64,000 nt of DNA from Acidobacteriaceae bacterium (GTDB lineage Bacteria > Acidobacteriota > Terriglobia > Terriglobales > Acidobacteriaceae), in NCBI GenBank assembly GCA_003140075.1, contig PLIO01000202.1, positions 29,395-93,394 on the forward strand. Direction: 5' to 3'. The translations under genes and the position numbers were made by a program. The notes below the pieces were generated by a model. The model was not told the DNA's origin. It saw only the letters and a program-made list of their open reading frames with translations, and made no database searches. Numbering within the stretch: position 1 is the stretch's first letter; the number at the start of each line of letters is the position of its first letter. This document shows, in pieces, positions 18,245-38,304 of the stretch.

Positions 18245-20616
18245 AAAATCTCATCTTTTCGATTCTCATCTCGCTCTTGACGTCGACACTACTGTTTGCC
18301 GACGCGGGCATTCTTATTCCTCGCGACAAGCAGCAGCCCGATCCCGCGATCCTCTCGCTCGAAGAAATGGAAATCACGATCCGCATCGACAATGGCGACG
18401 CCCGCGTGTTCGTGCGCCAGGTGTTTGCCAATCACACCGGCGGCATTCAGGAGGGCAACTACATTTTCGCTCTGCCCAGCCACGCTACGATCTCCGATTT
18501 TGCCACGTGGGACGGGCCGGTGAGGATTCCCGCCGTTATTCTCGAACGCAAGCGCGCCGAAGAGATTTACAACCAGCTGAAGCAGCAGTCGATCGATCCC
18601 GGCCTGCTGCAGATGGGGGAACGTGGCTCCGAAGAAGCCAAGCGCACGTCTGTTTTCAGCGCCCGCATCGTTCCGATTCCAGCTTTCGGAACGAAACGGC
18701 TGGAGATCGAGTATCACGAATCGATTCCGGTGGAGAATCTGAAGTCGTACTTCGCCATCCCACTGCGACCGGACGCATATCAGGCCCAGGCCGCGCGCCA
18801 TCTTCGCATCAATTTCGAACTGCACACAGCGCATGCCATTCGCAACTTTCAGGCGCCCGCAAAGAACTTTCCACTGCAACTCGAGCAGAACACCGCTCAC
18901 CTCGTCCAAGGCCATTTCGAAGGAGAGAACGTCAACCTGGGCGAGGATTTCGTAATCACTTACGATCTGGATCCCGCGGCGGCGGATACGCTGCAGATTC
19001 TGACGTATCGCAATCCGGTTAGCGGGCAGCCATCGCCAACCGAAACCGCGCCTGTTCGTACCACGAACGAGCCCGGCTTTTTTGAAGCGGAAGCTTTGCT
19101 CGGACCCGGGACGGGGTCCGCTCCCACCGCAAGCGCAGCCAGCGGCCCTCCCAAGACGGTTATCGTATTGTTCGATACATCGCTTTCCATGCAATGGGAA
19201 AAATTAGAGCGCAGCTACCAGGCTCTGGAAACGCTGCTGCGAACGCTCCGCCCCACCGACCATTTCAGCCTCGTGGTCTTCAATTCGGAAACCCACGCGT
19301 TGCCGCTCAGTGCTGCGAATGGCGGCAACGTCCAGCACGCAATTGATTTCGTCCGCGCCAGTCGATTGCGCGGTGGCACCGATATTCAACGCGCGCTCCA
19401 GGCCGGACTCCAACAGGCTGCAGATCCTGCGGCGTCCAATGCTTATCTGGTGATTCTGAGCGACGGCGGCGCGACCCGCGGTCCCATCACGAACGGAAAA
19501 CTTGCAGCGTGGTACGCCTCGGCGTGGAAGCAACTCCTGGAGACTCAGCGCCCGCGTACTTACATTCTCGCCGTCGGCGACGATGCCAACTTGCCGCTAT
19601 TCCGCATGCTGGAACGGCAGGATGGAGTGCTCGAACACGTGCTTTCGACCGAGCCCATGGAGTTCAAGCTGAACTCGTTCCTGTCGAAGATCGGCCGAAG
19701 TCCGATCGGGCAGTTGGATCTTGCGGTCGTGCCGGAGAGCGCCGTTGATACTGTCTACCCGCTGCAAGCCGCGACTTTTTCCGGATCGCTGGCTTCGTGG
19801 GTCGGACGTTACCAGAAGCCGCAGGAGAACGTCACCTTCGCGGTGCGCGGCTTGCGCGACGGGTCTCGTGTAGAGCTGACGGGGAAAACTAACTTCCCGC
19901 GCGAGTCTTTCGATCACCCGCAACTGCCTCGTCTCTGGGCTCGAGCTCGCGTGGATGCGCTGCTCGAGAAGATCGAGCGCGAAGGCGACGATCAAGCCAC
20001 CATCGACGAGATCATCCGCCTGGCGCGCCAGTACAAGTTCGTTACTCCCTACACTTCGTTCCTGGCTGTGCCGCGTGCGTTGTTGCGTCCACGCGTCATT
20101 CGGCCTGGCGACCCCATACTTCGCGTCAGAACCGACCCATCGATCACGTCTGTTGTCGCGCTGTTTCCGTTTGGATTGATGCAGCCGCTGCGTCACCTCT
20201 CGTCGGAAGATATTTGGCAGACCCGCTTTCTTGCTCCCACTGACATGCAGGATGGGACCTACACCGTGCGCCTCATCCTGCGCGACCAGCTCGGCAGAAC
20301 GTATCGTGAGTCGAAAACGTTCGTGATTGCCAGCAAGCCGCCGGTGGTCGAGGTGAAGCTCGACCACAAACGCTTCCAGCGCGGGCAGGCGATCGACCTG
20401 AAGGTTCACGCGTCGCAGAGCACGCGGACGCTGGTAGCGCGGCTGGATGGTACGGCACCGGTTGAACTCCGCTGGGATCCGCGAGCAGGCGCCAATACCG
20501 GCGAGTTGCTCATTCCCGAACAAACCATTCCTGGTTCTTACAAACTGACGGTCACCGCCGAAGATATTGCCCACAACATCGGCACCGGGGAGGTGCAGAT
20601 TGAAATCCTTCCTTAA
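18241..20616 (+). CDS. Secreted VIT domain + von Willebrand factor A domain protein with C-terminal beta-sandwich modules
   Basis: 791-aa ORF with an ATGA overlap with the upstream gene and a signal peptide MKNLIFSILISLLTSTLLFADAG. It has VIT-like N-terminal features, a vWA MIDAS motif (VIVLFDTSLSM, LVILSDGGAT) and the FVTPYTSFLAVP motif common in VIT-vWA proteins. Confidence 0.8.
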   Translation: MKNLIFSILISLLTSTLLFADAGILIPRDKQQPDPAILSLEEMEITIRIDNGDARVFVRQVFANHTGGIQEGNYIFALPSHATISDFATWDGPVRIPAVILERKRAEEIYNQLKQQSIDPGLLQMGERGSEEAKRTSVFSARIVPIPAFGTKRLEIEYHESIPVENLKSYFAIPLRPDAYQAQAARHLRINFELHTAHAIRNFQAPAKNFPLQLEQNTAHLVQGHFEGENVNLGEDFVITYDLDPAAADTLQILTYRNPVSGQPSPTETAPVRTTNEPGFFEAEALLGPGTGSAPTASAASGPPKTVIVLFDTSLSMQWEKLERSYQALETLLRTLRPTDHFSLVVFNSETHALPLSAANGGNVQHAIDFVRASRLRGGTDIQRALQAGLQQAADPAASNAYLVILSDGGATRGPITNGKLAAWYASAWKQLLETQRPRTYILAVGDDANLPLFRMLERQDGVLEHVLSTEPMEFKLNSFLSKIGRSPIGQLDLAVVPESAVDTVYPLQAATFSGSLASWVGRYQKPQENVTFAVRGLRDGSRVELTGKTNFPRESFDHPQLPRLWARARVDALLEKIEREGDDQATIDEIIRLARQYKFVTPYTSFLAVPRALLRPRVIRPGDPILRVRTDPSITSVVALFPFGLMQPLRHLSSEDIWQTRFLAPTDMQDGTYTVRLILRDQLGRTYRESKTFVIASKPPVVEVKLDHKRFQRGQAIDLKVHASQSTRTLVARLDGTAPVELRWDPRAGANTGELLIPEQTIPGSYKLTVTAEDIAHNIGTGEVQIEILP

Positions 20617-23600
20617 TTCATCGCGCAGAAGGGTATCGAGCCGGCGCATGCGTCTGCTGGCTATGGCTGTGTTGGTGCTTGCGGCCGGCTCGGCCATCGC
20701 TGCTCTGGGCGAGCTGCCCTCGTGGGTTCGCAACATCGAAGGATCGAGTGTGCTGGAGGCTGCTTTCTTCCGCATGATGCCGTTGCCCGGAGGTGCCGTG
20801 CCCTTTCGACGTCCTCCGCGCGAGACGCGTCCCGCGCTCTCCGAACTCATCAAGAATCAGCCACGCAATGGCGAACTATATTCTTTGCGCGCTCTGGAGG
20901 ACCAACAGCAGCTCGATTTCAAAGCCGCTGAATCGGATTGGAAATCCTACGTCGATAACTCATCGGAAAAGATCGAAGCTCAGCTCGCGCTTGCCGACTT
21001 CTATCATCGCCGTTTGCGGCCAGCGGACGAGATCAAAATACTATCTCTGGTTGCAACTGCCGCGCCCCTTGCGGCCGAGAAACTCACAACGTCCACGCAA
21101 CAACGCTCCTGGCAGGCGTTTGAGCGCATCTTCGGCGTGGTGCAAGCTCAGGGCCTCGCAAAAGACGCTTCCATCGCTCAGTACCGCGCCTGGATCGCGC
21201 GCTATCCGCAGGAGGAATCGCTTTACGTACGGTTCCTGCAATTTCTGGTTGCGCAAAAAGAATATGCCGCCGCCGGACAGCTGATCGCCGATTACCGCAA
21301 GCAGTTTCCGGGCGATCAGGTTTTTCCGGTGAGAGCGAAGGCGATGGTTGAATATCGGCGTGGCTCTGCCCGCGAGGGCTTGGCGGTGTATGAGCAGGAG
21401 TTTCAGCCGCTCTGGGACCCCGACTTGGTGAAAAGTTATTTCGATCTGCTGCGCGAGACCCAGAATCTTCGGAAGTTTCTCGACCAGGCTCGCGCCTCGC
21501 TGAACTCCGATCCCGAGGACTTGAACGCAACCGCCCGCATTTTCTATTACTACCAGCAGCAGGGCAAGCTTGAGGTGGCGCAGCAGGCAATCGCCGACTT
21601 CCGTCTACACAAGGAAGCTAGCAAGTCGCCGTGGACTTCGCAGGAACTCTACATCTGCGCACGGCTTCTGGAAGACATTCATGCCTATCCCGAGGCAGCG
21701 CGATATTATTTCGCGCTCTACAACAGCACGGGACGCTCCGACGCGCAGGAGCAGGCGATTGCCGGGCTCACGAATATTTTGCTGACCGCGCCGGAGATGC
21801 CGATCCGCTTTGGTTCGGGCGAACTCTCCATGTATCGCGACATCGCCACGATGGATCAGGGGCCCGGCTATTTGAACGGGATTCTTTCTCTGATCCTGAA
21901 CACAACCGAACCAGCTTTGAATTACTCAACGGAAGAACAGCGCGCGGTGCCTTACTTTCATCGTTCGCGGGCGGCCGAATTGCTGGCGCTGCTCGATGCG
22001 AAGTTCCCGGGTTCCGCTCGGCGACCTGGACTTCACGCCGGTCTGCTCCAGTTCTATTCCGCCACGGCGGAAAGCGACGCGGTCATTCAGGGTGGGCGCG
22101 ACTTTCTTGCGCAGTTTCCGAAGGCTTCGGAGCGTACCGCGGTTGCACTGCTCATGGCTGATGCCTACTCGCGCAAAGGCGATACGGCGAGTGAATTCGC
22201 CATCTACGATTCTGTGCTTCAGGAACTCGCATCCCAGGCGCAGAACGTGCCCCTGGGATCTGCGACGGAAGGGATGAATTCGTTTTACTACCCGCGCGGT
22301 GCAATGAACGCTGGCATGAATAACGCCGCTGGGGAGGGGGAAGAAGGCGAAGGAGAAGCGGAGGGCGGAGCACAGGGAAATACCGGATCGCGCCGACCGA
22401 TCGCAGGGGTTTTCCAGATCAGTTCCGCCATCTCACCTGCCCCATCGGCTGGAGCGCGTTCCGCCGAGTACGAGCGGGTTTTGGAGCGGTATCTCGCTCG
22501 CCTGGTGCAAATGAAACAAGTCCCGCAGGCGCTGACTGTGCTGCGGCGCGAGATCGACCGCAACCCTGACGACCCCGGCCTATACGAACGGCTCGCGGTT
22601 TTTCTTGAGCAGAACCAGTTAGGAGCCGAGCAGGAAGAAGTCTACCGCCGCGCGATGTCGCGTTTCCCGGACCGCTCGTGGTACGACAAGCTGGCGCGCT
22701 TCTATCTGCGTCAAAGAAGGAATTCCGACTTCGAACAGCTGACACGCGAAGCCCTCAAGACTTTCAGCGGCAGCGATCTCGAACGGTACTTCTACAACGT
22801 CAACGGCGGCGGCCCCGTGCTGTACCTGCGCTTGAATCAGTATGCCAATCAGCGTTTCCCGCACAACCCGGTATTCGTTCGGAATCTTCTCACGGCCTAC
22901 CGAACGCCCGCGACCACCGACCCGGTTGCCTGGGAATCGTTGTTGCGGCAGCACTGGTTCGAGGAAGCGAACCTGCGCGCTGAGTTCTTCGAATTTCTCT
23001 CCCGCACGGGCAGACTGGAAGCGGAGCTGAGTGCTTTGCGCCAGAGTGCGCCGGATGCTGCCAGTTGGGATGGCAATCCTGCCGCCGCCGAATTCCTGGC
23101 GAATGCCAACCTGTGGCGTTCGCACTTTGAAGAGAGTGCGCCTGTGCTGCGATCGCTTGCCGGTCAATATCCCGCCGAGTTCGAGATTGCGCGCACCGCT
23201 TCGTCCGTGTATCGCTCCCTGGCGTACTTCGATTCCGCCGATACGGCCATCGCCGCCCGGATCGAAGACAATTTGCTTCAGGCCAATCCGGGCAATACTG
23301 AGATCCTCGCGCGTGTTGGCGATATCTATGCCGACCGCGATCAGTTTGCGCAGGCCGCTCCGTACTGGGAACGGATTCCACAAGTATCGCCGGGACAATC
23401 CGGCGGATATCTCGACGCCGCTACCATCTACTGGGATTACTACGATTTCGATAACGCGCTGCGCCTGCTTAAGCAGGGGCGCGCTCGTCTCGCCGATCCC
23501 AATCTCTATTCCTACGAGGCAGGCGCTATCTACGAGAACCAGCGCGACTATGCGCACGCTATCGACGAATACGTAAAAGGCTCCCTCGCGGGCGCCGACG

Positions 23601-26600
23601 ACTCGTCTGCCGAAAACCGCTTGCTCCAGCTTGCGCGCCGCCCCAAGTTCCACGACCTCGTTGATCACAGCACTGCGAGTATCGTGGCATCATCCAATCC
23701 CTCTATGCCTGCGATCTATCTGCGGGTGAAGGTGCTGGAAGCTCAGAACCGCAGGCCGGAAATGGAAACGCTCCTCGACACGATGACCAACGGCACAACT
23801 TCCATCGAGCAGGCGGAAGACCTGGAAAACCTGGCGCAACAGAAATCGCTCGAAGCTGTACGCCAGCACGCGCTTGAGAAACAAGCCGTACTCACCACCG
23901 ACCCCGTCGCCCGCCTCGAACTTCGCTATGCGCTGATTCGAATGTATGAAGGCCGCAAGGATCTCGCGTCGGCGCAGAAGAACGTTGAAGCGCTCTACCG
24001 CGAGAATCCCAAGATTCTTGGCGTTGTCCGCTCCACGGTCGATTTTTATTGGCGCACCAAGAACTATCCGCAGGCAATCTCGGTTCTGCTGCAGGCCGCC
24101 AGGGACGCTTATCCCGAGCTGAGCGCTCAGTTCACCTACGAGGCCGCTCGCAAATCGACCGACGCGAAGCAGTACCCGCAGGCGCGCGAACTGCTCGCGC
24201 AGCTATTGAAGGATTCTCCTTACAACGGTGAATACCTTGCGGCCATGGCAGACACCTACGCGCAAGCCGGTGACGATCAGGGTTTGAAGCAGTTCTACAC
24301 GCAAAAGATCGCGCTGTTCCGGTCTGCGCCGCTGCCGGCGGATGCGCGTAAGGCGCAGGTTGCCACCTTGTGTCGCGGTCTGATTCCCGCGCTCACTCGA
24401 ATGAAGGACTACGCGGGTGCGGTTGATCAGTACATCGAACTCATCAACAGTTTCCCGGAAGACGACACGCTCGTCACCGAAGCCGCGTTGTATGGATTGC
24501 GCTATCAGCGCCAGCAACAACTCGTCGATTTCTATGCGAAGACGGTCGCGCAATCACCGCGTGACTATCACTGGTCCACTGTGCTGGCCCGGCTGCAGAC
24601 TAATCTGGAGGACTACCCGGCTGCGATTGAGACCTACGCCAAGGCGATCATCGTGCGGCCGGATCGCTTCGATCTTTACACCGCTCGGGCCGGTCTCGAA
24701 GAACGGCTGATGCACTTCGACGATGCAGTCTCCGACTACGAACATATCTATCAGCTCGCGTACAAAGATCCGCAGTGGATGGAGAAAATCGCTGCTGTGC
24801 GCGCGCGCCAGGGTAAAAAGACTGAAACCGTAACCGCCCTCAAAGCCGCGTTGATCGATGGCCGGCCGGAGAACGCGTCCAACTATTTCGAGGTCGCCCA
24901 CCGCCTTGAATCCTGGGGGATGCTTGCGGAGGCCCGCACTTTCGTCGAACTCGGAATCAAGACCGCCGGACCTGAACTGCTGGCCTCAGCAGAGAATCAG
25001 CCCGGCGCGAAGACCTACGTTCGCATCATGACTCGCCTCCGTCAGCAGGAGCTGGCATACACCAGGCTGCAGAGTTCGCTCGCGGAAGCATCTTCGAACC
25101 TGCCTGTCCTGAAAGAACAGGTCGCAACGCGAGGAATCGCCGCCATCACGGATGCCCAGTGGCGGGACAGAGTGCTCCACATGCGCATCGAGACTGCGCG
25201 CAACGGCATGGCCGCCGTTCTCACGGAGATGGGCAATACCGTGAACACATACTTCACACCAGAGGAGAGACTCGGCTTTGCGCACTTTGCCGAATCGAAG
25301 AAGATCGGCATGAACTTTGCCGACGTCGAGAAGTTTGCGATTCCTCTTGTCCAAAGCGCCGCTCTTGCCGACCAGGAATCCCGATGGCGTTTCGAGGTGA
25401 TGATGCAGGATCCGAATCGCAATCCGAATTTCTATAGCCGCCTGCCAGCCTTTGTGGGCCTGCAGCGCCGCCGGGGACGTTTTGCTGAACTTGGATCGCA
25501 GTTGGAGCAGTTCGCAGCGCTACTGCCCCGAACCAACCACAATGCTCCGCTGCTTGAGGCCGCCGACGCCTACCGCTCCGCCGGCGACCAACAAAATGAG
25601 TTGCGAATACTCTCAAACATTTCGGCGTCCTATCTCGACAACACCCACCAGCAGCATCTGTTCCAATTGCTACTGGCGCAGCGGCCAGAGGAGCTGGTCG
25701 CGATCAGTTCGGGATGGAATTCCGCAGGCGAAAATGCCGCCAACTTCGCGGTTGCGAACGGAGGATCTGCGCTCGCGCGCAACGCAGTTGTGGCTCGCGG
25801 AAAAAGCCGTCCGCCGGTCTGGACCAAGTCGTATCTCGGGCTGGTTGGACTTTACTATGCCGAGCCCGCTGCCGATGTGAACGAAGCATTCCTCGGCGCC
25901 CTCGGAGACAAGACGATCGCAGAGCGCCTGGCCACACCGGTTGACCGTGCGCAGCAGCTCGCCGGCGATACTTGGTTCTACTACGGATCCCGCTACGGCG
26001 AGTACCTCGGGACCACGAAGCAAAGTAATCCTGAGGACTATCTTCCCGCCATCCTGGAGCAGAGCCCAGCGTCGTCTTTCGGATATTTGACTTTGGCTGA
26101 CTATTACTTTGGCTCAGGCGACATGGAACACGCTATCGCGGATTACAACCACACGCTCGAACTCTCTCCCAATCGTCCGGATATTCACGGCAGTCTTGCC
26201 CTCGTTTATTACAAGCGCGGCGATCGGGCTGCCGCCGTCGGCGAGTGGAAGCAGGTTTTCGCGGCGCTTTTGAAGCAGCTCAATAGTGCGCACGTTCCGG
26301 AAACTTTCTGGGAGGACTTCGGGCATACTTGCGATCAGCTGTGCACCCGTCATCTGTATTCGGAACTTAAACCCGACGCCGACGCCATCGTTCGAACTTA
26401 TCTCCACCACAATGGCACCTACCGCTCGAACGCCATATTGCAACCCGCTTATGCTGCCATCGGTGACCCGGTATCAGCCACAGCGTGGCTGCTCGATGAT
26501 TCCGCGGCGGCGCAGGATCCCACACAGATTCTGGCTGATGTCATCGACGCGCCCTGGATTCCGCTGCCCCAACGCGCGTTAATCTATCAGCGTATTCTCC

Positions 26601-28045
26601 AATCCAAGCAAGATGCGCTTGTAAGCCTAACTGGCCTTGAGCGCGACAACGCTCAGCAAGCCCTCCGTTCCTGGCAAGTGCGCTCGATCAAGTACCTCAT
26701 CCTCACCAAACAGTATGCGTCCGCAGCCGATGCCATTGCGGCTTTATCAAAAGAGACCCGCGAGGCGGAGTCCGCCGCTCTGGTTCCACTCGATCTGCAA
26801 GTAGCTGCGCAGCTGGGAACACTGGACTCTAAAATCGCCGGGTATCGCACCGACCCGCGGAACACTCCCGATTCAAGTCTGCTTCGAACCGCGGCACGGC
26901 AGCTATTCGAGGCCGGAGACAAGCAGTCCGCGCGCAAGATTCTTGAATTCGTATTTGCTCGCGAGATCGATGAGCACCAGCTCAACGCCGCCAACTTCAT
27001 GGGCCTCGCGGAGATTCGCCTTGCTTCGGGAGACACTTCTGGTGCGCTCGATCTGCTGCGCCGCTTGGTTCTGGTCGTCGGGAATCCGTTCGAGAACCTC
27101 GATCCCGCTGCGGCTTTGCTGGAGAAAACCGGCCACAATGCTGAGGCTGTCGAGTTTCTCGATCAACTGGTCACGTCGGCGCCTTGGGACCCTTCTTACC
27201 GTTTGCGTCTCGCCAAAGCCAGAGCGGGCGCGGGGCAGAATGCCGTCGCGCCCGCTGAGGCTCTCGTCCCGATCGCGGCGGGATTGGAAGTTCCTTATGA
27301 TCTCCGTCTCAGAGCTGCTTCTGCTCTCGCGGGCCAGCGGCACTCCGATCTGGGAAGCGGCGAACTGAACCTGCTTGCCGGAAACGCATCGGCCATCTCT
27401 CCAACCGCCGCCGACAAGTTCTACTTCTACGAAGGTCGCATCAAGGCCGCGCAGAACATGGCCGACCCGCGGGCGAAACTCGAACTGCTAAGCCACTGCA
27501 TCATCGATTTTCCACAGCGAGACGAAGCTCGCATACCGCTGTTCCAGGCGGCGGCGACTTTGCGCTCCGATGAATTTGCTGTTGGAGTTCTGGAACCGCA
27601 GCTACAGAAGCAATTCCTCGGCAGTGCTACTGTCTCCGGAGCCGAGTACGAAGAGGAACAAATCACTGCGTCCGACAATGACGAAGCAGATGAAAGCGAA
27701 TCTACAAACAGCGCTATTCCGCAACCGGCCAAATTCTCCCGTGCGCAGCAAGCACAACTGGCGCAGATGGTCGGCGACGTGATGACGCGCCTGAATCGGC
27801 TGGCTGAGGCCGTATCGTATTTCGAAGTAGCGCGTCGCCTGGCGGATTCGCCGGAGCTACGCAAGGAAAGTAGAAGAAAGATTGCAGACCTAAAGGCCAT
27901 ATTGCGGATGCAGCAGCAGAACGCCGGGCGCCATCCCCTGCTGCATGAAGCTCTGGAGCAGGATCGCATCGTTCGGCCGCGGTTGTTGGCTCGCTCCGCT
28001 CCTGGGCCTAAGGCAGTCACTCCGAAAGGAGGCGTGAAACCATGA
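20600..28045 (+). CDS. Giant exported tetratricopeptide-repeat (TPR) protein (~2,481 aa)
   Basis: One uninterrupted ORF. It is alpha-helical repeat sequence throughout, with many A..Y..A....P TPR-like units (e.g. AIADYNHTLELSPNRPDIHGSLALVYYKRGDRAAAVGEWKQV), and an N-terminal signal/anchor MRLLAMAVLVLAAGSAIA. Candidate starts are TTG 20600 (GGGGAGGTG upstream) and ATG 20648. The track start at 20567 overlaps the upstream gene by 50 nt and is less likely. Confidence 0.75.
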   Translation: MKSFLNSSRRRVSSRRMRLLAMAVLVLAAGSAIAALGELPSWVRNIEGSSVLEAAFFRMMPLPGGAVPFRRPPRETRPALSELIKNQPRNGELYSLRALEDQQQLDFKAAESDWKSYVDNSSEKIEAQLALADFYHRRLRPADEIKILSLVATAAPLAAEKLTTSTQQRSWQAFERIFGVVQAQGLAKDASIAQYRAWIARYPQEESLYVRFLQFLVAQKEYAAAGQLIADYRKQFPGDQVFPVRAKAMVEYRRGSAREGLAVYEQEFQPLWDPDLVKSYFDLLRETQNLRKFLDQARASLNSDPEDLNATARIFYYYQQQGKLEVAQQAIADFRLHKEASKSPWTSQELYICARLLEDIHAYPEAARYYFALYNSTGRSDAQEQAIAGLTNILLTAPEMPIRFGSGELSMYRDIATMDQGPGYLNGILSLILNTTEPALNYSTEEQRAVPYFHRSRAAELLALLDAKFPGSARRPGLHAGLLQFYSATAESDAVIQGGRDFLAQFPKASERTAVALLMADAYSRKGDTASEFAIYDSVLQELASQAQNVPLGSATEGMNSFYYPRGAMNAGMNNAAGEGEEGEGEAEGGAQGNTGSRRPIAGVFQISSAISPAPSAGARSAEYERVLERYLARLVQMKQVPQALTVLRREIDRNPDDPGLYERLAVFLEQNQLGAEQEEVYRRAMSRFPDRSWYDKLARFYLRQRRNSDFEQLTREALKTFSGSDLERYFYNVNGGGPVLYLRLNQYANQRFPHNPVFVRNLLTAYRTPATTDPVAWESLLRQHWFEEANLRAEFFEFLSRTGRLEAELSALRQSAPDAASWDGNPAAAEFLANANLWRSHFEESAPVLRSLAGQYPAEFEIARTASSVYRSLAYFDSADTAIAARIEDNLLQANPGNTEILARVGDIYADRDQFAQAAPYWERIPQVSPGQSGGYLDAATIYWDYYDFDNALRLLKQGRARLADPNLYSYEAGAIYENQRDYAHAIDEYVKGSLAGADDSSAENRLLQLARRPKFHDLVDHSTASIVASSNPSMPAIYLRVKVLEAQNRRPEMETLLDTMTNGTTSIEQAEDLENLAQQKSLEAVRQHALEKQAVLTTDPVARLELRYALIRMYEGRKDLASAQKNVEALYRENPKILGVVRSTVDFYWRTKNYPQAISVLLQAARDAYPELSAQFTYEAARKSTDAKQYPQARELLAQLLKDSPYNGEYLAAMADTYAQAGDDQGLKQFYTQKIALFRSAPLPADARKAQVATLCRGLIPALTRMKDYAGAVDQYIELINSFPEDDTLVTEAALYGLRYQRQQQLVDFYAKTVAQSPRDYHWSTVLARLQTNLEDYPAAIETYAKAIIVRPDRFDLYTARAGLEERLMHFDDAVSDYEHIYQLAYKDPQWMEKIAAVRARQGKKTETVTALKAALIDGRPENASNYFEVAHRLESWGMLAEARTFVELGIKTAGPELLASAENQPGAKTYVRIMTRLRQQELAYTRLQSSLAEASSNLPVLKEQVATRGIAAITDAQWRDRVLHMRIETARNGMAAVLTEMGNTVNTYFTPEERLGFAHFAESKKIGMNFADVEKFAIPLVQSAALADQESRWRFEVMMQDPNRNPNFYSRLPAFVGLQRRRGRFAELGSQLEQFAALLPRTNHNAPLLEAADAYRSAGDQQNELRILSNISASYLDNTHQQHLFQLLLAQRPEELVAISSGWNSAGENAANFAVANGGSALARNAVVARGKSRPPVWTKSYLGLVGLYYAEPAADVNEAFLGALGDKTIAERLATPVDRAQQLAGDTWFYYGSRYGEYLGTTKQSNPEDYLPAILEQSPASSFGYLTLADYYFGSGDMEHAIADYNHTLELSPNRPDIHGSLALVYYKRGDRAAAVGEWKQVFAALLKQLNSAHVPETFWEDFGHTCDQLCTRHLYSELKPDADAIVRTYLHHNGTYRSNAILQPAYAAIGDPVSATAWLLDDSAAAQDPTQILADVIDAPWIPLPQRALIYQRILQSKQDALVSLTGLERDNAQQALRSWQVRSIKYLILTKQYASAADAIAALSKETREAESAALVPLDLQVAAQLGTLDSKIAGYRTDPRNTPDSSLLRTAARQLFEAGDKQSARKILEFVFAREIDEHQLNAANFMGLAEIRLASGDTSGALDLLRRLVLVVGNPFENLDPAAALLEKTGHNAEAVEFLDQLVTSAPWDPSYRLRLAKARAGAGQNAVAPAEALVPIAAGLEVPYDLRLRAASALAGQRHSDLGSGELNLLAGNASAISPTAADKFYFYEGRIKAAQNMADPRAKLELLSHCIIDFPQRDEARIPLFQAAATLRSDEFAVGVLEPQLQKQFLGSATVSGAEYEEEQITASDNDEADESESTNSAIPQPAKFSRAQQAQLAQMVGDVMTRLNRLAEAVSYFEVARRLADSPELRKESRRKIADLKAILRMQQQNAGRHPLLHEALEQDRIVRPRLLARSAPGPKAVTPKGGVKP

Positions 28046-30605: not shown

Positions 30606-31744
30606 CTGGCCTTGCACGGATGAAAATCACAATCGCATTCTTCTCGCTGATTTTCGTAAGTTCCTCGGGTGTAGCCCAGGACGTGCGCGTCGGTGTGTTC
30701 GGCCTGTTCCATCCCGATCGACTTGTGGTCAGCGCTCGAACCGGTTCTGCAGTGGTTGTGCATGTCGCAGAGGAGTCCTTGGTGCTGGAGGAAAGCTCGG
30801 GTGTGAACATCGCCGACATCCGCGTCAGCGGGGACAACGTTGTTCTGCGCGTTGGAACCCGCATCTTCCATAACCCAAGAATCACCGTTACCAGCCGCAA
30901 CAACGGCCCCGCCGACTTCAACCTCGCCATCGCCGGTAGGATCACGCGGCACTATCGCGGCACGCTCGAAGTGAAACCTTATGCCCGAGCGCTTACGGCC
31001 GTTGTAACCATGGATCTGGAAACCGCCGTGGCCTCGGTTGTGGCTGCCGAAAGCGCGAGCGACACGCCAGCCGAAGCGGTGAAAGCTCTGGCCGTGGCGG
31101 CACGATCTTATTTCGCTGCCGGAAAAGGCCGCCACCACGATTTTGATTTCTGCGATACCACTCACTGCCAGTTTCTAAGAGCGCCGCCGGCAAACAACTC
31201 CTCCGCCGCGCAGGCGGTCGATGCCACTCGGGGATTGGTGATCGCTTACCAATCCCAACCTTTCGCTGCGATGTATACGCGCAGCTGCAGCGGGCGTACG
31301 CTCACTCCTGATGAACTAAGCCTGCCTCCCGCCGCTTATCCTTACTACTCTGTCGATTGCAAGTATTGCCGCGAGCACCCATCGCAATGGCAGAGCCGGC
31401 TCTCTTCTGAGGATGCTGTGGCCCTGCGGGGTTCGAACGAGTCTTCGCGGCTAAGCCTCGACCGTCGATTAGGATGGAGCGCCGTCCCAAGCAATACCTT
31501 CGTTGTCCGAAGAGAGGGCGAGCAAACCATCCTGCGGGGAGTCGGCCGGGGACACGGTATGGGCCTCTGCCAGGCTGGGGCCAAAGCAATGGCCGAAGAA
31601 GGCGCGACTTACCGCGAAATCCTTGCTCACTATTATGCGAATACAGACGTCATCCCGCTGGGCGGTGTTCCGCCACCGCGTCGATTGACCGAACGCTCAC
31701 GATCACGGCAATTCGACGGATTATCTGTACCGCTAAAGAAGTGA
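30602..31744 (+). CDS. SpoIID/LytB-domain protein (peptidoglycan lytic transglycosylase / amidase-enhancer family)
   Basis: 380-aa ORF with a GTGA overlap with the PBP-like gene; ATG 30620 is an alternative start. It has a signal peptide MKITIAFFSLIFVSSSGVAQD and the SpoIID signature PAEAVKALAVAARSYF...HHDFDFCDTTHCQ. Confidence 0.8.
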   Translation: MTGLARMKITIAFFSLIFVSSSGVAQDVRVGVFGLFHPDRLVVSARTGSAVVVHVAEESLVLEESSGVNIADIRVSGDNVVLRVGTRIFHNPRITVTSRNNGPADFNLAIAGRITRHYRGTLEVKPYARALTAVVTMDLETAVASVVAAESASDTPAEAVKALAVAARSYFAAGKGRHHDFDFCDTTHCQFLRAPPANNSSAAQAVDATRGLVIAYQSQPFAAMYTRSCSGRTLTPDELSLPPAAYPYYSVDCKYCREHPSQWQSRLSSEDAVALRGSNESSRLSLDRRLGWSAVPSNTFVVRREGEQTILRGVGRGHGMGLCQAGAKAMAEEGATYREILAHYYANTDVIPLGGVPPPRRLTERSRSRQFDGLSVPLKK

Positions 31745-31916
31745 TCGCTCGAATTCAAATTGTTGATTCCATGTCCCCACCGACAAATCTGAGGGAAGCG
31801 GCTAAGTCATTTTTCTGGTATTGGTTGCTCGCCGTAGGTCGAGATGAGCTCCGGATCGCTCGCGAACCATCGTGGCGGGTTCTTCAGCTTTGCAGCGCCG
31901 ACGCTGCAGAACATCA

Positions 31917-31946
31917 TTGACGGAGAGACGCAGAACGTCCTAAACT
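31917..31946 (+). promoter_or_regulatory. Candidate sigma70-type promoter of the his leader (TTGACG-N18-TAAACT)
   Basis: Hexamers read by eye. The -10 hexamer ends 9 nt before the GTG of the His-rich leader ORF. Confidence 0.3.
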
Positions 31947-31955
31947 TTAAGCGTT

Positions 31956-32030
31956 GTGACTTTGCTGAACCATCACGGCCACCATCATCACCATCATGCG
32001 ATAAGCGTGTCGGTGGAGCACTTCGGATGA
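31956..32030 (+). CDS. hisL: Histidine operon leader peptide (24 aa: V/M-TLLNHHGHHHHHHAISVSVEHFG)
   Basis: Small ORF GTG ACT TTG CTG AAC CAT CAC GGC CAC CAT CAT CAC CAT CAT GCG ... TGA. It has 8 His codons in a 9-codon window (31971-31997). A rho-independent terminator lies 29 nt downstream and hisI starts 122 nt downstream. The ORF is too short for the supplied ORF track. The symbol is by analogy only. Confidence 0.7.
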   Translation: MTLLNHHGHHHHHHAISVSVEHFG

Positions 32031-32058
32031 CGGCCTAACAGCACTAATAGGAAATCCA

Positions 32059-32101
32059 AGCCCGCTGATGCGAACCTCGCAACAGCGGGCTTTTTGTTTT
32101 T
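32059..32101 (+). terminator. Intrinsic terminator (attenuator) between the his leader peptide and hisI
   Basis: A 9-bp stem, AGCCCGCTG (32059-67) paired with CAGCGGGCT (32083-91). The loop holds a small GCGA/TCGC helix, and the stem is followed by TTTTTGTTTTT (32091-32101). Confidence 0.75.
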
Positions 32102-32151
32102 GCCGCGAGCGCTCGACGCTCAGGAGATGGACGAAGAGAAGGAGGTTTGGA

Positions 32152-32511
32152 ATGGAGATCGACTTCGACAAGATGCAAGGCCTGGTGCCTGCGGTGATTC
32201 AGGACTGGGGTAGCGGAGAATTGCTGATGGTGGGTTTCATGAACCGCGAGGCGCTGGAGAGCACGTTGCATAAGGGTTTCGTCACATTCTACAGTCGCAC
32301 TCGACAGAAGCTATGGACGAAAGGAGAAACCTCCGGCAATCGTCTGGAAGTTGTGGCAGCGCTCACGGACTGCGACCGCGACACAGTGTTGTTGCGGGTT
32401 CGTGTGCTCGGCCCCGGCAAAGTTTGCCACACGGGGTCGAGATCGTGTTTCACGCAGGAACTGCCGTTGGCCGCAGCGTCACGGACTGTGGAAGAGGAGA
32501 TGCGGCGATGA
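32152..32511 (+). CDS. hisI: Phosphoribosyl-AMP cyclohydrolase (monofunctional, no HisE domain)
   Basis: 119 aa counted from ATG 32152 (AAGGAGG upstream). Motifs: [44 protein letters not shown]. The track ORF starts upstream at 32068, inside the terminator, which is unlikely. Confidence 0.9.
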
Positions 32512-33377
32512 AACTGCGTCTGGGTATTCCTAAGGGAAGTTTGCAGGAGGCGACGCTCAACCTATTCACGCGCGCGGGGCTGCGCGTCTACACGAGCGCG
32601 CGCTCATACTTCGCGGCCACCGACGATCCTGAGATCGAATGTCTGCTCATTCGCGCGCAGGAAATGGCGCGCTACGTCGAACACGGTGCGCTCGACGCGG
32701 GTTTAACCGGCCTCGACTGGGTGCTGGAAAGCGGTCTCGATGTGGTCAGCGTCACCGACCTGATTTATGCGAAACAAAGTATGGGTAAGGTGAAGTGGGT
32801 GCTGGCCGTGCCGGAGGATTCGGAATTCCAGAAGCCCGAAGACCTGGAGGGACGGATCGTTGCCACTGAGCTGGTGAGCTTTACGCGGAATTACTTTGCC
32901 AGCCGCAACGTGCCGGTGCGGGTCGAGTTCTCCTGGGGCGCGACTGAAGTTAAGCCGCCGCTGCTGGCGGATGCCATCGTAGAGATAACTGAGACTGGGA
33001 GTTCGCTGCGTGCCAATCATTTGAGAATTATCGAAACCGTGCTGGAGTCGAATACGCAACTGGTCGCGAACAAGGCGGCCTGGGCCGATCCTGAGCGGCG
33101 GCAGAAGATCGAAAACCTGGCGGTGATGTTGTGCGGAGCCATGGCTGCTCTGGGCCGCGTCGGACTGATGCTCAACGTGCGGAAACCAGATTTGGCCGCT
33201 GTTCTGGGCCTGCTGCCTGCGTTGAAGAATCCCACGGTTGCGCCCTTGGCCGATGGAGAGTGGGTCGCGGTCAATACGGTCATCGAAGAGCACACCGCCT
33301 GGTCGCTGATTCCAAAGCTCAAGCAAGCGAACGCGCAAGGGATCGTCGAGTATCCGCTGAACAAGGTGGTGATGTGA
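32508..33377 (+). CDS. hisG: ATP phosphoribosyltransferase, long form
   Basis: 289 aa from ATG 32508, with an ATGA overlap with hisI. It begins [17 protein letters not shown] and has the C-terminal regulatory domain. Confidence 0.9.
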
Positions 33378-34630
33378 TGCGGATTCGCATTCTGGACGGA
33401 CCTAAGAGAGACCGGTTCGTACGGGCGCTGGAGCAGCGCGGCGCGAACGATCTCGCCGAAATCGAACCGGCGGTGCGACGCATTGTAAACAACGTCCGGC
33501 GCGACGGGGATCGGGCGTTGCGTCGTTATGCAGAGCGCTGGGATGGGTTGGGAAAAACCGAACCTGCGCGCGTGCCCGAGGCGGAGTTACAGGAGGCCTG
33601 GAAGCAAACCGCTCCGGAACTGCGGGACGCCATCGCGCAATCCGCAGCGAACATTCGCCGCTACTGCGAGTGGCAGAAGCCGGAAGAATGGCGGCGCGAG
33701 ATTCAACCCGGAGTTTGCGTAGGACAGTTGGTGCGTCCGCTGGAATCGGTGGGCTGTTACGTGCCCGGTGGCCGCTACCCACTGCCCTCTACCTTGCTGA
33801 TGACGGTGATACCAGCGCAGGTTGCGGGCGTTCCGCAGATTCGAGTAGCGTCGCCGCACCCGGCTCAAGCGACTCTGGCGGCTGCCGCATTTCTCGGCGT
33901 GCGCGAGTTCTACCGCGTGGGTGGGGCACAAGCAATCGCAGCATATGCTTATGGAACGAAGAGCGTTCCGCGCGTGAACAAGATCGTCGGTCCCGGCAAC
34001 CGGTACGTGACCGCAGCCAAAAAGCTGGTTGCATTCGATTGTGGCATCGAATTCCTTGCGGGTCCCACGGAGGCGGTGTTCATCAGCGAGACCGGCGATC
34101 CAGTTCTGATTGCCTGCGATTTAATCGCGCAGGCGGAACACGATCCCGACGCGCTCTGCCTCATGATTACGAATTCGCGCCAACTAGCTAAAGGTGTGCA
34201 GGCAGAGGCGCAGTGGCGAGCGCAGGTTAATTCAATTGCCGCTGAATCGCTCGCCCGTCGCGGAGCTATTCTTTTGGTTGAATCTCTCGAGGCGGCGATC
34301 GAGATTGCGAACCGCATCGCGGCCGAGCATCTTACTTTGCCCGCGGCCCTGGCGCAGAAAGTTCGAAATGCGGGTTCGATTTTTCTGAACGAGTTCACCC
34401 CGCAGTCTGCGGGGGACTACATCTCGGGTCCGAATCACGTATTGCCGACGGGAGCGATGGCACGCGTGCGGGGCGGCCTGAGCGTGTTGGATTTCGTTCG
34501 CGTTATTTCCTGCCAAAAAATCTCTCGCGAAGGGATTCGCCGCATCGCTCCACCGGCCATCGCGCTCGCCGAAGCCGAGGGCCTCCGTGGACACACGGAG
34601 TCACTGCGGGTGAGGTGCTCGAATGCTTGA
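33377..34630 (+). CDS. hisD: Histidinol dehydrogenase
   Basis: 417 aa from ATG 33377, in a TGATG overlap with hisG. Motifs: QAEHDP and GPNHVLPT. Confidence 0.9.
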   Translation: MRIRILDGPKRDRFVRALEQRGANDLAEIEPAVRRIVNNVRRDGDRALRRYAERWDGLGKTEPARVPEAELQEAWKQTAPELRDAIAQSAANIRRYCEWQKPEEWRREIQPGVCVGQLVRPLESVGCYVPGGRYPLPSTLLMTVIPAQVAGVPQIRVASPHPAQATLAAAAFLGVREFYRVGGAQAIAAYAYGTKSVPRVNKIVGPGNRYVTAAKKLVAFDCGIEFLAGPTEAVFISETGDPVLIACDLIAQAEHDPDALCLMITNSRQLAKGVQAEAQWRAQVNSIAAESLARRGAILLVESLEAAIEIANRIAAEHLTLPAALAQKVRNAGSIFLNEFTPQSAGDYISGPNHVLPTGAMARVRGGLSVLDFVRVISCQKISREGIRRIAPPAIALAEAEGLRGHTESLRVRCSNA

Positions 34631-35699
34631 AGCCCGCTCGGCAGTGAAGAGTTTGCATGCCTATCGGCCGCCGCTGGCTGGACGGCAAGGACTGCGTCTT
34701 GATTTCAACGAGAGCACGATCGGTTGCTCGCCGCGCGTGTTAGCGCGGCTGCGCTCCCTCGATGCCGAACTGCTGGCACGTTATCCCGAGCGTGAGCCGG
34801 TGGAGGCCGAGGTCGCCGATTTTTTCGGACTCGATGCGGCGCAGGTTCTGCTCACGAACGGAGTGGATGAGGCCATTCACCTGCTGTGCGCGACTTATAT
34901 CGATCCCGGAGACGAAGCGATTATCGTAGTACCGACGTTTGCGATGTATGCCATCTTCGCGCAGGCGGAAGGGGCTCGCTTGATCCCGGTTCATTCACGC
35001 GATAATTTTTCCTTTCCCTTGGAAGAACTGCTCTCGCGAATCAGCGCACGTACGCGGCTGATCGCGGTGGCGAATCCTAACAATCCTACGGGCGCGGCGG
35101 TTAACTGCGAAATTCTGCTCCAAGTCGCTCATGCGGCGCCGCAAGCGGCGGTGTTGGTGGACGAAGCCTATTTTGAATTTCACGGTGAGACTATGCTCAA
35201 CCGTTCCGCGCGACCGCCAAATCTCTTCGTAGCACGCACATTCTCCAAGGCGTACGGATTGGCTGGTCTTCGTATCGGCGTTCTCGTTGGAGATGCGGAA
35301 CAGATGGCGATGGTGCGCCGCGTCGCTTCGCCGTACAACGTGAATGCGGTTGCGTTGGCGGTGTTGCCGGAGGCGCTTCGCGATCAGAAATACGTCGAAC
35401 ATTATGTTGCCGAAGTGGAGAACGGCCGCGGAGTGTTGGAGCAGGAGTTCAAGACTCTTGGCCTCCATTACTGGCCGAGCCGAGCCAACTTTGTGCTCGT
35501 GCGCGTTGGTCCAGCCCACGCGGAATTCATGCAGGCCCTGCGGGCGCGGGGAATCCTGGTGCGCGACCGGAATTCCGATCCGGGATGCGAAGGCTGCGTG
35601 CGCCTGACCGTGGGTTCAAACGAACATACGAGAACTCTGATTAACGCGCTGCGCGATGTGGTCAGGGAACTCAGGGACTATCGCGAGGTGGGAGCGTGA
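34623..35699 (+). CDS. hisC: Histidinol-phosphate aminotransferase
   Basis: 358 aa with an 8-nt overlap with hisD. It has the class-II aminotransferase PLP-lysine motif [14 protein letters not shown]. Confidence 0.85.
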
Positions 35700-36283
35700 G
35701 GAAGGCGAAGCTGCACCGCAAGACCGCGGAAACCGAGATTCGGATTGCGCTCACGATTGAGGGCCGAGGAAAGTACGAGGTATCAACCGGAATTCGTTTT
35801 CTGGATCACATGCTGGAACTTTTCACCCGGCACGGCGGATTCGATCTGAAACTGGCAGCAGTGGGCGATTTGGACGTGGATCAGCACCATACCGTGGAAG
35901 ACGTAGGGATTGCTCTCGGTGAAGTCTTTGACCGCGCCTTGGGAGATCGCCGAGGAATTTTGCGCGCGGGTTATTTTGTCATGCCGATGGATGAAACTCT
36001 CGGTTTGGCGGCGGTCGATTTCGGCGGACGGTCGGCCGCGGTCGTCGACGCCAAAGTTCGTGCGGCGCGCGTAGGAGATCTGCAAGTGGAATTGGTGAGC
36101 GATTTTTTCGAAGGCTTTGCGCGCGGCGCACGCGCCAATGTTCATGTGCGCGTGCTTTATGGGCGCTCCAGCCATCACAAGATTGAAGCTATCTTCAAAG
36201 CTTTCGCACGGGCTTTGCGCGCGGCGTGCTCGCGCGATCGCCGCCTGGGCTTGATGCTGCCGAGCACCAAGGGACTTCTATGA
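35696..36283 (+). CDS. hisB: Imidazoleglycerol-phosphate dehydratase
   Basis: 195 aa with a GTGA overlap with hisC. Motifs: [22 protein letters not shown] and [16 protein letters not shown]. Confidence 0.9.
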
Positions 36284-36870
36284 TCGCGATCGTGGATTAC
36301 GGCGCGGGCAATCTGAACTCGGTCAAGAAGGCGTTTGATTTTCTCGGGGCTGACGTTGTGGTGACGGACCGGCGCGAGATCGTGGAGAACGCGGACAAAA
36401 TCGTCCTGCCTGGGGTGGGACATTTCTCGTCTCTGCAAACTCTGAGCCGCACGGGTTTGTGGGACGCCCTGCTGCAAGCCGCTTTCGCCGGCAAACCATT
36501 TCTCGGAATCTGCCTGGGAATGCAATGGCTCTTCGAAGGGAGCGCGGAGTGCAACGACATCACGGGAGCGGGTATCTTCACCGGCCGATGCCGGCAATTT
36601 CCAGCAGCTATGAAGTCGCCGCATGTCGGCTGGAATTCGCTGGCCATTCAGCCGGGCTCACGGCTGCTGCGAGGCGTCGCGCAGGAATCGTTTGTCTACT
36701 ACACGCACAGCTTTTATGCGCCTGTTGTTGAAGCCACGGCTGCCACCAGCGAATACGGGCTGCCGTTTGCCGGCGCCGTGGAGCGAGGCAACATTTTCGG
36801 AGTGCAGTTTCATCCGGAGAAATCAGGTGACGTCGGTCTCGCGATCCTGAAGAATTTCTGTGAGGTCTGA
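36280..36870 (+). CDS. hisH: Imidazole glycerol phosphate synthase, glutamine amidotransferase subunit
   Basis: 196 aa from ATG 36280, with an ATGA overlap with hisB. Motifs: [24 protein letters not shown] (nucleophile Cys) and FHPEKS. Confidence 0.9.
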
Positions 36871-37636
36871 GGTGTTGACCAAGCGCATCATCGCCTGCCT
36901 GGATATGGACGGCGGCCGCGTAGTGAAGGGCGTGCGGTTCAAGAATCTCCGCGACGCCGGCGATCCGGCGGAGTGTGCAGCCGCCCACGCCCGCAGCGGC
37001 GCAGATGAAATCGTGCTCCTTGACATTACCGCGACGAGTGGCAATCGGCACACCCTGCTCGAAGCGGTTCGCGGGACGGCACGGTCGCTGTTTGTTCCGT
37101 TTACGGTAGGCGGAGGAATTCGACAGCTCGACGATGCAGCGGCGGTTTTCGATGCGGGCGCGGACAAGATCGCCATCAACTCAGCTGCCGTGCGCGACCC
37201 CGCTTTGATCGGAAAGATTGCGGGGCGCTTTGGTTCGCAGGCAGTTGTCGTGGCCATTGATGCAAGAAAAAAAGAAGACGGATGTTTTGAAGTGTTCGTT
37301 GCTGGGGGACGCGTGCCCACGGGTCGCGACGCGATTCAATGGGCACGGGAAGCAGCCGCGAGCGGAGCGGGGGAGATCCTCCTGACCTCGATGGACAGGG
37401 ACGGAACTCAATCCGGATTTGACTGCGGATTAGTGCGCGCGGTGGCTGAGGCTGTCTCGATTCCTGTGATTGCTTCAGGCGGCGCTGGATCAGCGCGCGA
37501 CTTCATCGAAGTCTTTCACGAAGGTCGCGCAGACGCGGCTCTGGCCGCATCCATCTTTCATTTCGGCATCGAGAATATCGCGGAACTGAAACACGAGCTG
37601 CGCGATGCCGGCGTACCGGTGAGGTGGCCATGCTGA
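36860..37636 (+). CDS. hisF: Imidazole glycerol phosphate synthase, cyclase subunit
   Basis: ~255 aa. The start is GTG 36860 or 36872. Motifs: [30 protein letters not shown] and ASGGAG. Confidence 0.9.
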
Positions 37637-38304
37637 TTCCGTCGATCGACCTGATGGGCGGCAAGATCGTGCAGTTGGTGCAAGGTGAGAAGAAAGCGCT
37701 GGAGTTCGACAACTTCGAGTACTGGATTGAGCGCTTCTCGAAGTATCCGCTCGTGCAGGTGATCGACTTGGACGCGGCTCGAGGTACCGGCAGCAATCTG
37801 GCAATCGTGAATCAGATTGTTCAGAGGCTGAACTGCCAGGTAGGCGGCGGCATTCGCACTCTCGAAGCGGCACAGAGAGTCCTGAATTTGGGTGCGCGCC
37901 GAATCATTCTCGGGTCTGCGTTGTTGGAAAGTGGCAAGATCAACACGCAGTTCGCCGCGAAGTTAGCAAGTACGCTGGGTACGGCAGTGCTGGTGTTCGC
38001 CCTCGATTCGCGAGGCGGGCGGGTTGCGGTCGATGGGTGGCGCAAAAACACTGACGTCACTGCGTTCGAAATGATTCGTTCCCTCGAACCATTCTGTGGC
38101 ACTTTTCTCTATACGCATATCGAGACGGAGGGGTTAATGGGCGGAATCCCGATGGAGACCGTATGCGCGATCCGGCAAGCCACTTCGCGGCGGCTGGTGG
38201 TCGCTGGCGGTATTACGACACAACAAGAAATCGACTGCCTGGACGCACTCGGAATGGACGCCGTTGTCGGCATGGCTTTGTATTCCAGCAGGATTTCGGC
38301 GTGA
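37624..38304 (+). CDS. hisA: ProFAR isomerase (HisA family TIM barrel)
   Basis: ~225 aa. The start is GTG 37624 or ATG 37630. It has [18 protein letters not shown] at the N-terminus and GGGIR and VAGGI phosphate-binding motifs. It is shorter and more divergent than typical HisA. Confidence 0.8.

Follow-up and report, generated by a model that had tools for sequence, protein, structure and literature searches.

The his operon and its leader region

The stretch of DNA analyzed here (the window; 64,000 nucleotides) carries a his operon, the genes of which we assigned as follows.

32152 to 38304, plus strand: hisIGDCBHFA, the putatively regulated operon (NCBIfam matches; Pfam on called genes)
32152 to 32511, plus strand: hisI (NCBIfam; strong Shine-Dalgarno sequence AAGGAGG, ATG start)
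32508 to 33377, plus strand: hisG, long form with C-terminal domain (NCBIfam)
33377 to 34630, plus strand: hisD (NCBIfam)
34623 to 35699, plus strand: hisC (NCBIfam)
35696 to 36283, plus strand: hisB (NCBIfam)
about 36280 to 36870, plus strand: hisH (NCBIfam)
36860 to 37636, plus strand: hisF (NCBIfam)
37624 to 38304, plus strand: hisA-like gene (scores below its NCBIfam cut-off)

The genes from hisI to hisF score above the NCBIfam cut-offs, and the ORFs of the operon abut or overlap. The upstream neighbor on the same strand encodes a SpoIID/LytB-domain protein; two genes upstream of this SpoIID-like gene, a 2492-aa ORF extends from 20567 to 28045 on the plus strand. In the region upstream of hisI, we mapped the following elements.

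31917 to 31922, plus strand: -35 hexamer TTGACG (consensus scan; TTGACN in 78/78 aligned leaders)
31941 to 31946, plus strand: -10 hexamer TAAACT, family pattern TANNNT (consensus scan; 78/78 leaders)
31956 to 32030, plus strand: leader ORF, 24 codons and TGA stop (ORF listing, translation)
31971 to 31997, plus strand: candidate regulatory His block HHGHHHHHH, the proposed ribosome-stalling site (codon-position conservation)
31988 to 31999, plus strand: segment 1, 5' arm of the 1:2 hairpin (anti-antiterminator; minimum-energy fold, 87% paired)
32005 to 32016, plus strand: segment 2, GCGUGUCGGUGG, the partner of segment 1 in one fold and of segment 3 in the other
32025 to 32057, plus strand: spacer hairpin GGAU (32025-28)/AUCC (32054-57), with inner CCUA (32034-37)/UAGG (32048-51)
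32058 to 32072, plus strand: segment 3 (32058-67, 5' arm of the terminator; 32062-72, 3' arm of the antiterminator)
32083 to 32092, plus strand: segment 4, 3' arm of the terminator stem (97.9% of cells paired, 3 compensatory pairs)
32091 to 32101, plus strand: T-tract of the intrinsic terminator, CTTTTTGTTTTT, also TTTTTGTTTTT (conserved in alignment A1)

For this region, the original prediction proposed that the his operon is preceded by a leader-peptide attenuator, made up of a 24-codon ORF with 8 His codons in 9 and of a GC-rich hairpin with a T-tract before hisI. The ORF was confirmed in the sequence: it starts with GTG at 31956, ends with TGA at 32028 to 32030 and has the product (M/V)TLLNHHGHHHHHHAISVSVEHFG, in which 8 of the 9 codons at 31971 to 31997 encode His, while a ninth His codon lies at 32019. 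The hairpin and T-tract were found as well, with a stem of 10 bp beginning at 32058 and a gap of 50 nt between the T-tract and the start of hisI at 32152. At the level of sequence, the attenuator assignment is supported by the his genes downstream, by the presence of the element in 79 of 79 assessable relatives and by the antiterminator described below.

A search for five CAY triplets in a row, with at most one mismatch, returned a single site in the 64 kb (two overlapping matches versus 0.24 expected). A second copy of the element was not found in the window, either with the CAY pattern or with the covariance model R1 (see below) run with filters off. On the metagenome contigs inspected, the leader ORF is absent from the gene callers' annotation. 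Some metagenome assemblies contain a called minus-strand ORF of 36 aa at window positions 31807 to 31917, upstream of the promoter; this ORF is probably a spurious gene call.

Conservation of the leader in relatives

To identify related loci, we used the HisI protein to scan one genome per GTDB species and kept the best 80 loci, nearly all of which are labeled Acidobacteriaceae, Terriglobales or Candidatus Sulfotelmatobacter and which have HisI identities of 76 to 89% to the window. A His-rich ORF, a hairpin and a T-tract were present within approximately 250 nt upstream of hisI in 78 of these 80 loci. Counting L066, in which an insert separates the T-tract from hisI (see below), and leaving out L004, the contig of which ends 69 nt upstream of hisI, the element was detected in 79 of 79 assessable loci among the best 80 Terriglobales species. 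The 78 leaders were combined in alignment A1; they come from different but related species, and counts based on them are therefore not independent. In a separate HisI protein search, the matches listed were close relatives only (79 to 100% identity), and the window's own HisI was found only on metagenome contigs. The covariance model R1, built from the acidobacterial alignment A2 with two family members held out, scored these two leaders at 142 to 152 bits.

The lack of a His-codon run upstream of his genes in related genomes had been named beforehand as a result that would speak against an attenuator; instead, all 79 assessable loci carry the run. Aligning the relatives, as had been suggested, showed His runs conserved upstream of hisI together with a terminator stem that has compensatory changes. 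The 78 leaders have 5 to 10 His codons each, and all lie directly upstream of hisI. Their peptides have 22 to 26 aa, length changes being in-frame indels in multiples of three, and the consensus M(T/I)SL.HHRHHHHHHAMSVSAE..G. The start and stop columns of the ORF are conserved in the alignment, with ATG in 67 and GTG in 9 of the 78 leaders. In the six codons of the His block after the gap, the CA at positions 1 and 2 is mostly conserved at 0.85 to 1.00, while the third position is C or T with a conservation of 0.53 to 0.87. The retained CA with a variable third base, the triplet indels and the retained start and stop together form the signature of a sequence that is read as codons.

Two further features of the leader ORFs were observed. 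An Arg codon (CGY) breaks the His run in 65 of the 78 leaders, and a Gly codon (GGC) does so at 31977 to 31979 in the window; the break may be functional, or it may merely be a tolerated change from CAY to CGY. In the leader L026:2313-2457, a 2-nt indel shifts the reading frame, so that the peptide, MTSLNHHRHHHHLMR, ends after the His block and before segment 2. Every RNA element is kept in this leader despite the frameshift, and it scores 151.5 bits with model R1.

Promoter and predicted translation start of the leader ORF

The original prediction included a putative -35 hexamer. This hexamer corresponds to TTGACG at 31917 to 31922, and its TTGACN pattern is shared by all 78 leaders. Together with the -10 hexamer, in which columns T17, A18 and T22 are invariant in alignment A1, it forms a candidate promoter at 31917 to 31946 that appears sigma-70-like from its sequence. 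The spacer has 18 nt in the window and 17 to 18 nt in all 78 leaders.

The position of the start codon relative to this promoter is tightly constrained. In the window, the GTG of the leader ORF starts 9 nt after the -10 hexamer; among the 78 leaders, this distance is 9 nt in 40, 10 nt in 32 and 8 nt in 4, i.e. the -10 box is held 9 to 10 nt upstream of the start codon in 72 of 78 species, and the sequence between the two varies freely. We did not find a Shine-Dalgarno sequence before the leader ORF: SD-like tetramers occur in 6 of the 78 leaders, all of them within a -10 hexamer of the sequence TAGGAT. Transcription usually starts 6 to 10 nt after the -10 hexamer, and the promoter geometry thus predicts a 5' UTR of approximately 0 to 4 nt. 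Because a Shine-Dalgarno sequence was not found and the conserved -10 box lies 9 to 10 nt before the start codon, we suggest that the mRNA from which the leader ORF would be translated is probably leaderless or close to leaderless.

Leaderless genes are predicted to make up 10 to 19% of the genes in three Acidobacteria genomes (Zheng et al., PMC3160421), in which the TANNNT signal peaks slightly nearer the start codon than in the leader family of the window. If the leader mRNA is indeed leaderless, the ribosome would load on its extreme 5' end once this end is clear of RNA polymerase, and the synchronization of ribosome and polymerase would be solved differently from the enterobacterial arrangement of a Shine-Dalgarno sequence plus a pause hairpin.

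The terminator and its distance to hisI

The terminator stem (32058 to 32067/32083 to 32092) is GC-rich and comprises 10 bp, including two basal A-U pairs, with an inner 5-bp hairpin; a simple terminator scanner registers only the inner part of this stem. In the 78 leaders, 97.9% of the cells are paired compared to 29 to 60% in slid controls, and three pairs are changed on both sides, e.g. from G-C to U-A in L067 and from G-C to A-U in L073.

These features bear on an alternative in which stalling on the His codons controls hisI translation or mRNA stability, while the hairpin before the T-tract is mainly a structural or processing element. Such control would have a parallel in mycobacteria, in which leaderless polycysteine short ORFs are reported to be amino-acid-responsive attenuators of operon expression (10.1101/834739). 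However, the hairpin has the full set of features of an intrinsic terminator, namely a GC-rich 10-bp stem, a T-tract and compensatory changes, and 50 nt further on, hisI is preceded by a strong Shine-Dalgarno sequence of its own, over which no conserved occluding structure was apparent. We therefore consider this alternative highly improbable and favor termination of transcription at the T-tract.

In L066 (L066:1950-2470; QIAN01000162.1), approximately 540 nt are inserted between the T-tract of the attenuator and hisI. Based on Rfam, the insert is a group II intron (group-II-D1D4-3, 76.1 bits with a threshold of 32; Intron_gpII, 39.6 bits with a threshold of 40) that is too short for a reverse transcriptase. 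The sequence of L004 upstream of hisI (L004:1-69), at which the contig ends, has the same 3' end as this insert (CCCCTATGCCGATT). Insertion directly behind terminator hairpins is known for some bacterial group II introns, and the location of the intron in L066 would fit with the hairpin being a genuine terminator.

Mutually exclusive folds of the leader RNA

The RNA from 31945 to 32105 folds at -56.8 kcal/mol (z = -3.8), and none of 200 shuffled sequences folded as well. The original prediction had proposed folding to enumerate alternative structures but reported no convincing antiterminator by eye. Folding revealed two alternatives, i.e. the 1:2 hairpin plus the terminator versus a 2:3 antiterminator. 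The free full-length leader RNA folds into the 1:2 hairpin (31988 to 31999/32005 to 32016) and the terminator at -56.4 kcal/mol, segment 1 overlapping the last three His codons and the Ala codon. For a transcript ending at 32080, i.e. before segment 4, the antiterminator is the minimum-energy fold whether or not the His block is masked; here, 5'-CGUGUCGGUGG-3' (32006 to 32016) pairs with 5'-CCGCUGAUGCG-3' (32062 to 32072) over 11 bp, four of which are G-U pairs in the window, compared to two in the consensus of the family. The antiterminator helix encloses the spacer hairpin, which is also present in the fold of the truncated transcript.

Both folds recur in the relatives. The full-length minimum-energy fold has 7 or more of the 10 terminator pairs in 78 of 78 leaders, and the truncated, His-masked fold has 8 or more of the 11 antiterminator pairs in 72 of 78. 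With the His block of the full transcript masked, 66 of 78 leaders still favor the terminator thermodynamically. The antiterminator was dominant in only 5 of 78, and we therefore rejected the idea that it prevails thermodynamically in the full transcript. It follows that antitermination must be kinetic. In the classical trp attenuator, the choice is likewise kinetic, and the terminator is thermodynamically stronger.

In alignment A1, 95.8% of the cells of the antiterminator are paired versus 30 to 45% in slid controls (whole structure including the spacer hairpin), and almost all changes preserve pairing and are one-sided (U-A to U-G 28 times, G-C to G-U 11 times and G-U to A-U 6 times). As the region hardly varies, covariation support for the antiterminator is weak: one change affects both sides, and 91 of 500 shuffles reach the covariation score. 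In the 1:2 hairpin, 87% of the cells are paired compared to 20 to 63% in slid controls, and most members have an internal mismatch. An earlier proposed pairing of 32021-28 with 32054-60 corresponds to the GGAU/AUCC outer helix of the spacer hairpin; it stands insofar as this outer helix is 98% paired, but it is almost invariant and shows no covariation. The inner helix of this hairpin is paired in 84 to 85% and is missing from shorter variants. The pairing of 31982-89 with 32026-33, also part of the original prediction, exists with 7 of 8 pairs in the window, but it needs GAUGACGGCC and is restricted to close relatives of the window. The same holds for a GGCC/GGCC extension of the 1:2 hairpin in the window fold, which was consequently not included in the core structure. 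Given this distribution in the sequences, we treat the pairing and the extension as a candidate clade-specific extension.

The seven codons after the His block (31998 to 32018) have third positions that are 97% conserved compared to 70% in hisI. These frozen third positions point to a constraint on the RNA rather than on the peptide, and the invariance of the segment can be explained because segment 2 must pair with two partners, i.e. segments 1 and 3.

This conservation is relevant for two further alternatives. First, a protein or tRNA-His could bind the CAY repeats or the segment from 31998 to 32016, by analogy with TRAP, HutP, PyrR or the T-box, with the ORF being incidental. The CAY triplet repeats and the almost invariant 19-nt RNA could indeed make up a binding site, and an ORF without a Shine-Dalgarno sequence as well as the weak covariation of the antiterminator would be compatible with this idea. 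By contrast, an incidental ORF does not fit with the conservation of the start codon (ATG or GTG in 76 of 78), of the in-frame stop and of triplet-only indels, nor with third positions of the His codons that vary like synonymous sites, while the invariant segment is accounted for by its double pairing with segments 1 and 3. Moreover, the window contains no match at gathering score to the T-box or any other Rfam family, and a scan of 31400 to 32600 with relaxed cut-offs gave only subthreshold leader or terminator-like matches. Altogether, we regard recognition by such a factor as very unlikely.

Second, the ORF could encode a functional His-rich peptide, e.g. for metal binding, with the hairpin acting as an ordinary leaky terminator or as a stabilizer. 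His-rich peptides can bind metals, which makes such a function conceivable for the leader peptide, and its C-terminal motif AMSVSAE..G is conserved. However, the C-terminal codons are frozen at synonymous positions, as expected for a constraint on the RNA; the ORF is always found between the promoter and the his operon, and the 5' arm of the terminator can pair with the 3' part of the ORF; and the frameshift in L026 drops the C-terminal motif, while the RNA elements are kept. A function of the peptide as such is therefore extremely improbable.

Relationship to known attenuators

The original prediction referred to the arrangement as hisL-type, which our data support with respect to function but not with respect to family, as the leader fails the RF00514 threshold and has a four-segment fold. 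In the search with Rfam His_leader (RF00514) that had been proposed as a check, the window scored 23.3 bits (E = 0.31) compared to the gathering threshold of 49. Similarly, 0 of 20 relatives passed the RF00514 threshold, and at gathering score there was no match to Rfam in the whole window and none in the 20 relatives. Thus, the acidobacterial leader is not a member of Rfam His_leader. Matches to His_leader, Thr_leader, Trp_leader and a Burkholderia sRNA were all subthreshold, with the terminator and the His run accounting for their scores; they were rejected. T-box leaders are tRNA-sensing riboswitches that regulate his genes in some Firmicutes and Actinobacteria; the T-box model gave no match in 31400 to 32600 at E values up to 10 and none at gathering score in the window. 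In the reciprocal direction, model R1 scored 23.9 bits on hisL-hisG of E. coli MG1655 (L085 494-649) and 21 bits on the reverse strand of its own terminator. The weak reciprocal similarity between R1 and hisL probably reflects common functional features, i.e. the His run and the terminator.

As in enterobacterial hisL, a short ORF with a His run and an intrinsic terminator precede the first his gene, the pairings are mutually exclusive, and the presumed signal is charged tRNA-His sensed via a stalling ribosome. The his leader of Salmonella and E. coli follows a six-segment A:B/C:D/E:F scheme, whereas the acidobacterial leader has four segments and a spacer hairpin. The acidobacterial peptide has 22 to 26 aa with Arg (or Gly) interrupting the His run, while hisL has 16 aa with seven consecutive His. 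The E. coli hisL ORF is led by a Shine-Dalgarno sequence; the acidobacterial leader is without one and has its start codon 9 to 10 nt after the -10 box. Finally, the first gene is hisI in the acidobacterial operon and hisG in the enterobacterial operon.

The leader shares with E. coli trpL that segment 1 lies over the regulatory codons, that 2:3 pairing forms the antiterminator and 3:4 pairing the terminator, and that the terminator is thermodynamically stronger and the choice kinetic. It differs from trpL in the amino acid and the operon, in the extra conserved hairpin in the spacer between segments 2 and 3 and in the SD-less ORF, and there is no sequence relationship between the two. As far as the predicted folds allow, the topology of the acidobacterial leader appears to resemble the trp leader more than the six-segment his leader of enterobacteria.

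His-leader attenuators have also been predicted in the Bacillus cereus group, Peptostreptococcaceae and Erysipelotrichales and, in bacilli, upstream of hisZ and of a hisS paralogue (PMC9413887, PMC2965389), and they have been described or predicted in gamma-proteobacteria and Actinobacteria (PMC9413887, PMC2965389, PMC4833913). The Firmicutes His leaders are likewise missed by RF00514 (PMC9413887). Like these, the acidobacterial leader combines a His-rich peptide, a terminator and an antiterminator in a lineage-specific and apparently independent manner; it differs from them in phylum and sequence, and it has 5 to 10 His codons per leader versus 3 to 5 consecutive His codons in Firmicutes. Compared to the mycobacterial polycysteine ORFs (10.1101/834739), the similarity lies in an SD-less short ORF that is rich in codons for the product and located at the 5' end of a biosynthetic mRNA; the acidobacterial leader is set apart by a canonical intrinsic terminator and antiterminator, and its leaderless status is suggested by promoter geometry. 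In agreement with the original prediction, which knew of no such arrangement established for Acidobacteria, our literature search, in which subscription journals were thinly covered, found no description of a His attenuator for this phylum.

Proposed mechanism

The sequence elements, the mutual exclusivity of the folds, the conservation and the constraint at the codon and RNA levels were obtained computationally. From these, we infer where transcription starts, that the ORF is translated, that the ribosome stalls on it and that the system responds to histidine. Together, the data make it very likely that transcription of the his operon is controlled by a ribosome-mediated attenuator upstream of it, with charged tRNA-His as the signal.

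In this model, transcription would start a few nucleotides after the -10 box TAAACT (31941 to 31946), and a ribosome would load at the GTG/ATG at 31956, at or within approximately 4 nt of the 5' end, without a Shine-Dalgarno sequence. When His-tRNA is plentiful, the ribosome would pass the His block and reach the stop codon at 32028. Once this codon occupies the A site, the ribosome would cover approximately 32013 to 32040, including the 3' end of segment 2, so that it would either cover part of segment 2 or depart and allow the 1:2 hairpin (31988-99/32005-16) to re-form. Segment 3 would then be free to pair with segment 4, the terminator (32058-67/32083-92) would form, and RNA polymerase would halt at the T-tract (32091 to 32101), short of hisI. 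When His-tRNA is scarce, the ribosome would stall within 31971 to 31997, hiding segment 1 and exposing segment 2 (32006-16); with its A site on the His codons from 31980 to 31992, its 3' edge should lie upstream of 32006. The exposed segment 2 would pair with 32062-72 before segment 4 is transcribed, and the resulting 2:3 antiterminator would block the terminator and allow the polymerase to proceed into hisIGDCBHFA. The operon would thus most likely be switched on when histidine runs short.

Such a mechanism would be the textbook one; what appears to be new, judging from the sequences, is its occurrence in a phylum for which none is described in the literature searched. More specifically, we see roughly even chances that the attenuator is an independent acidobacterial invention in which the sensing ribosome starts translation on an mRNA that is leaderless or almost so. 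If this start is indeed leaderless, the leader would represent a natural system for ribosome-polymerase coupling without a Shine-Dalgarno sequence. The attenuator adds one more apparently independent origin of His-codon attenuation. Acidobacteria are among the most abundant soil phyla, and their gene regulation is almost wholly uncharted; the leader provides a concrete candidate for a cis-regulatory RNA of a core biosynthetic operon, conserved in no fewer than 79 peat and soil species of Terriglobales. Because the element is missed by Rfam and gene callers, the alignment and model could serve as the starting point of a new RNA family and help to annotate genomes better.

Additional features near the leader

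A hairpin, TGCAGCG-CCGA-CGCTGCA at 31891 to 31908, had been noted upstream of the -35 hexamer. It is present as a perfect 7-bp hairpin but is not conserved, as only 3 of 78 relatives have a perfect hairpin of at least 6 bp at this site, and it was rejected as part of the conserved unit. An A-rich stretch directly upstream of TTGAC (e.g. CAGAAAC.GATTGAC) is more widely shared than this hairpin and could be a UP-like element.

Two of the loci, L067 (DASRWO010000385.1) and L078 (DATHMV010000055.1), have typical Terriglobales leaders and HisI identities of approximately 76 to 80%. They are labeled 'Candidatus Deferrimicrobiaceae' and 'Candidatus Aquilonibacter', respectively, both of which are names of non-acidobacterial lineages; the contigs are probably mis-binned or the MAG labels wrong.

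Between the terminator and the ribosome-binding site of hisI, the window contains a perfect 10-nt palindrome, CGAGCGCTCG, at 32106 to 32115. The matching region of the relatives is only loosely similar (GCG.GCGTTCG), and the palindrome may form a small hairpin or be bound by a protein.
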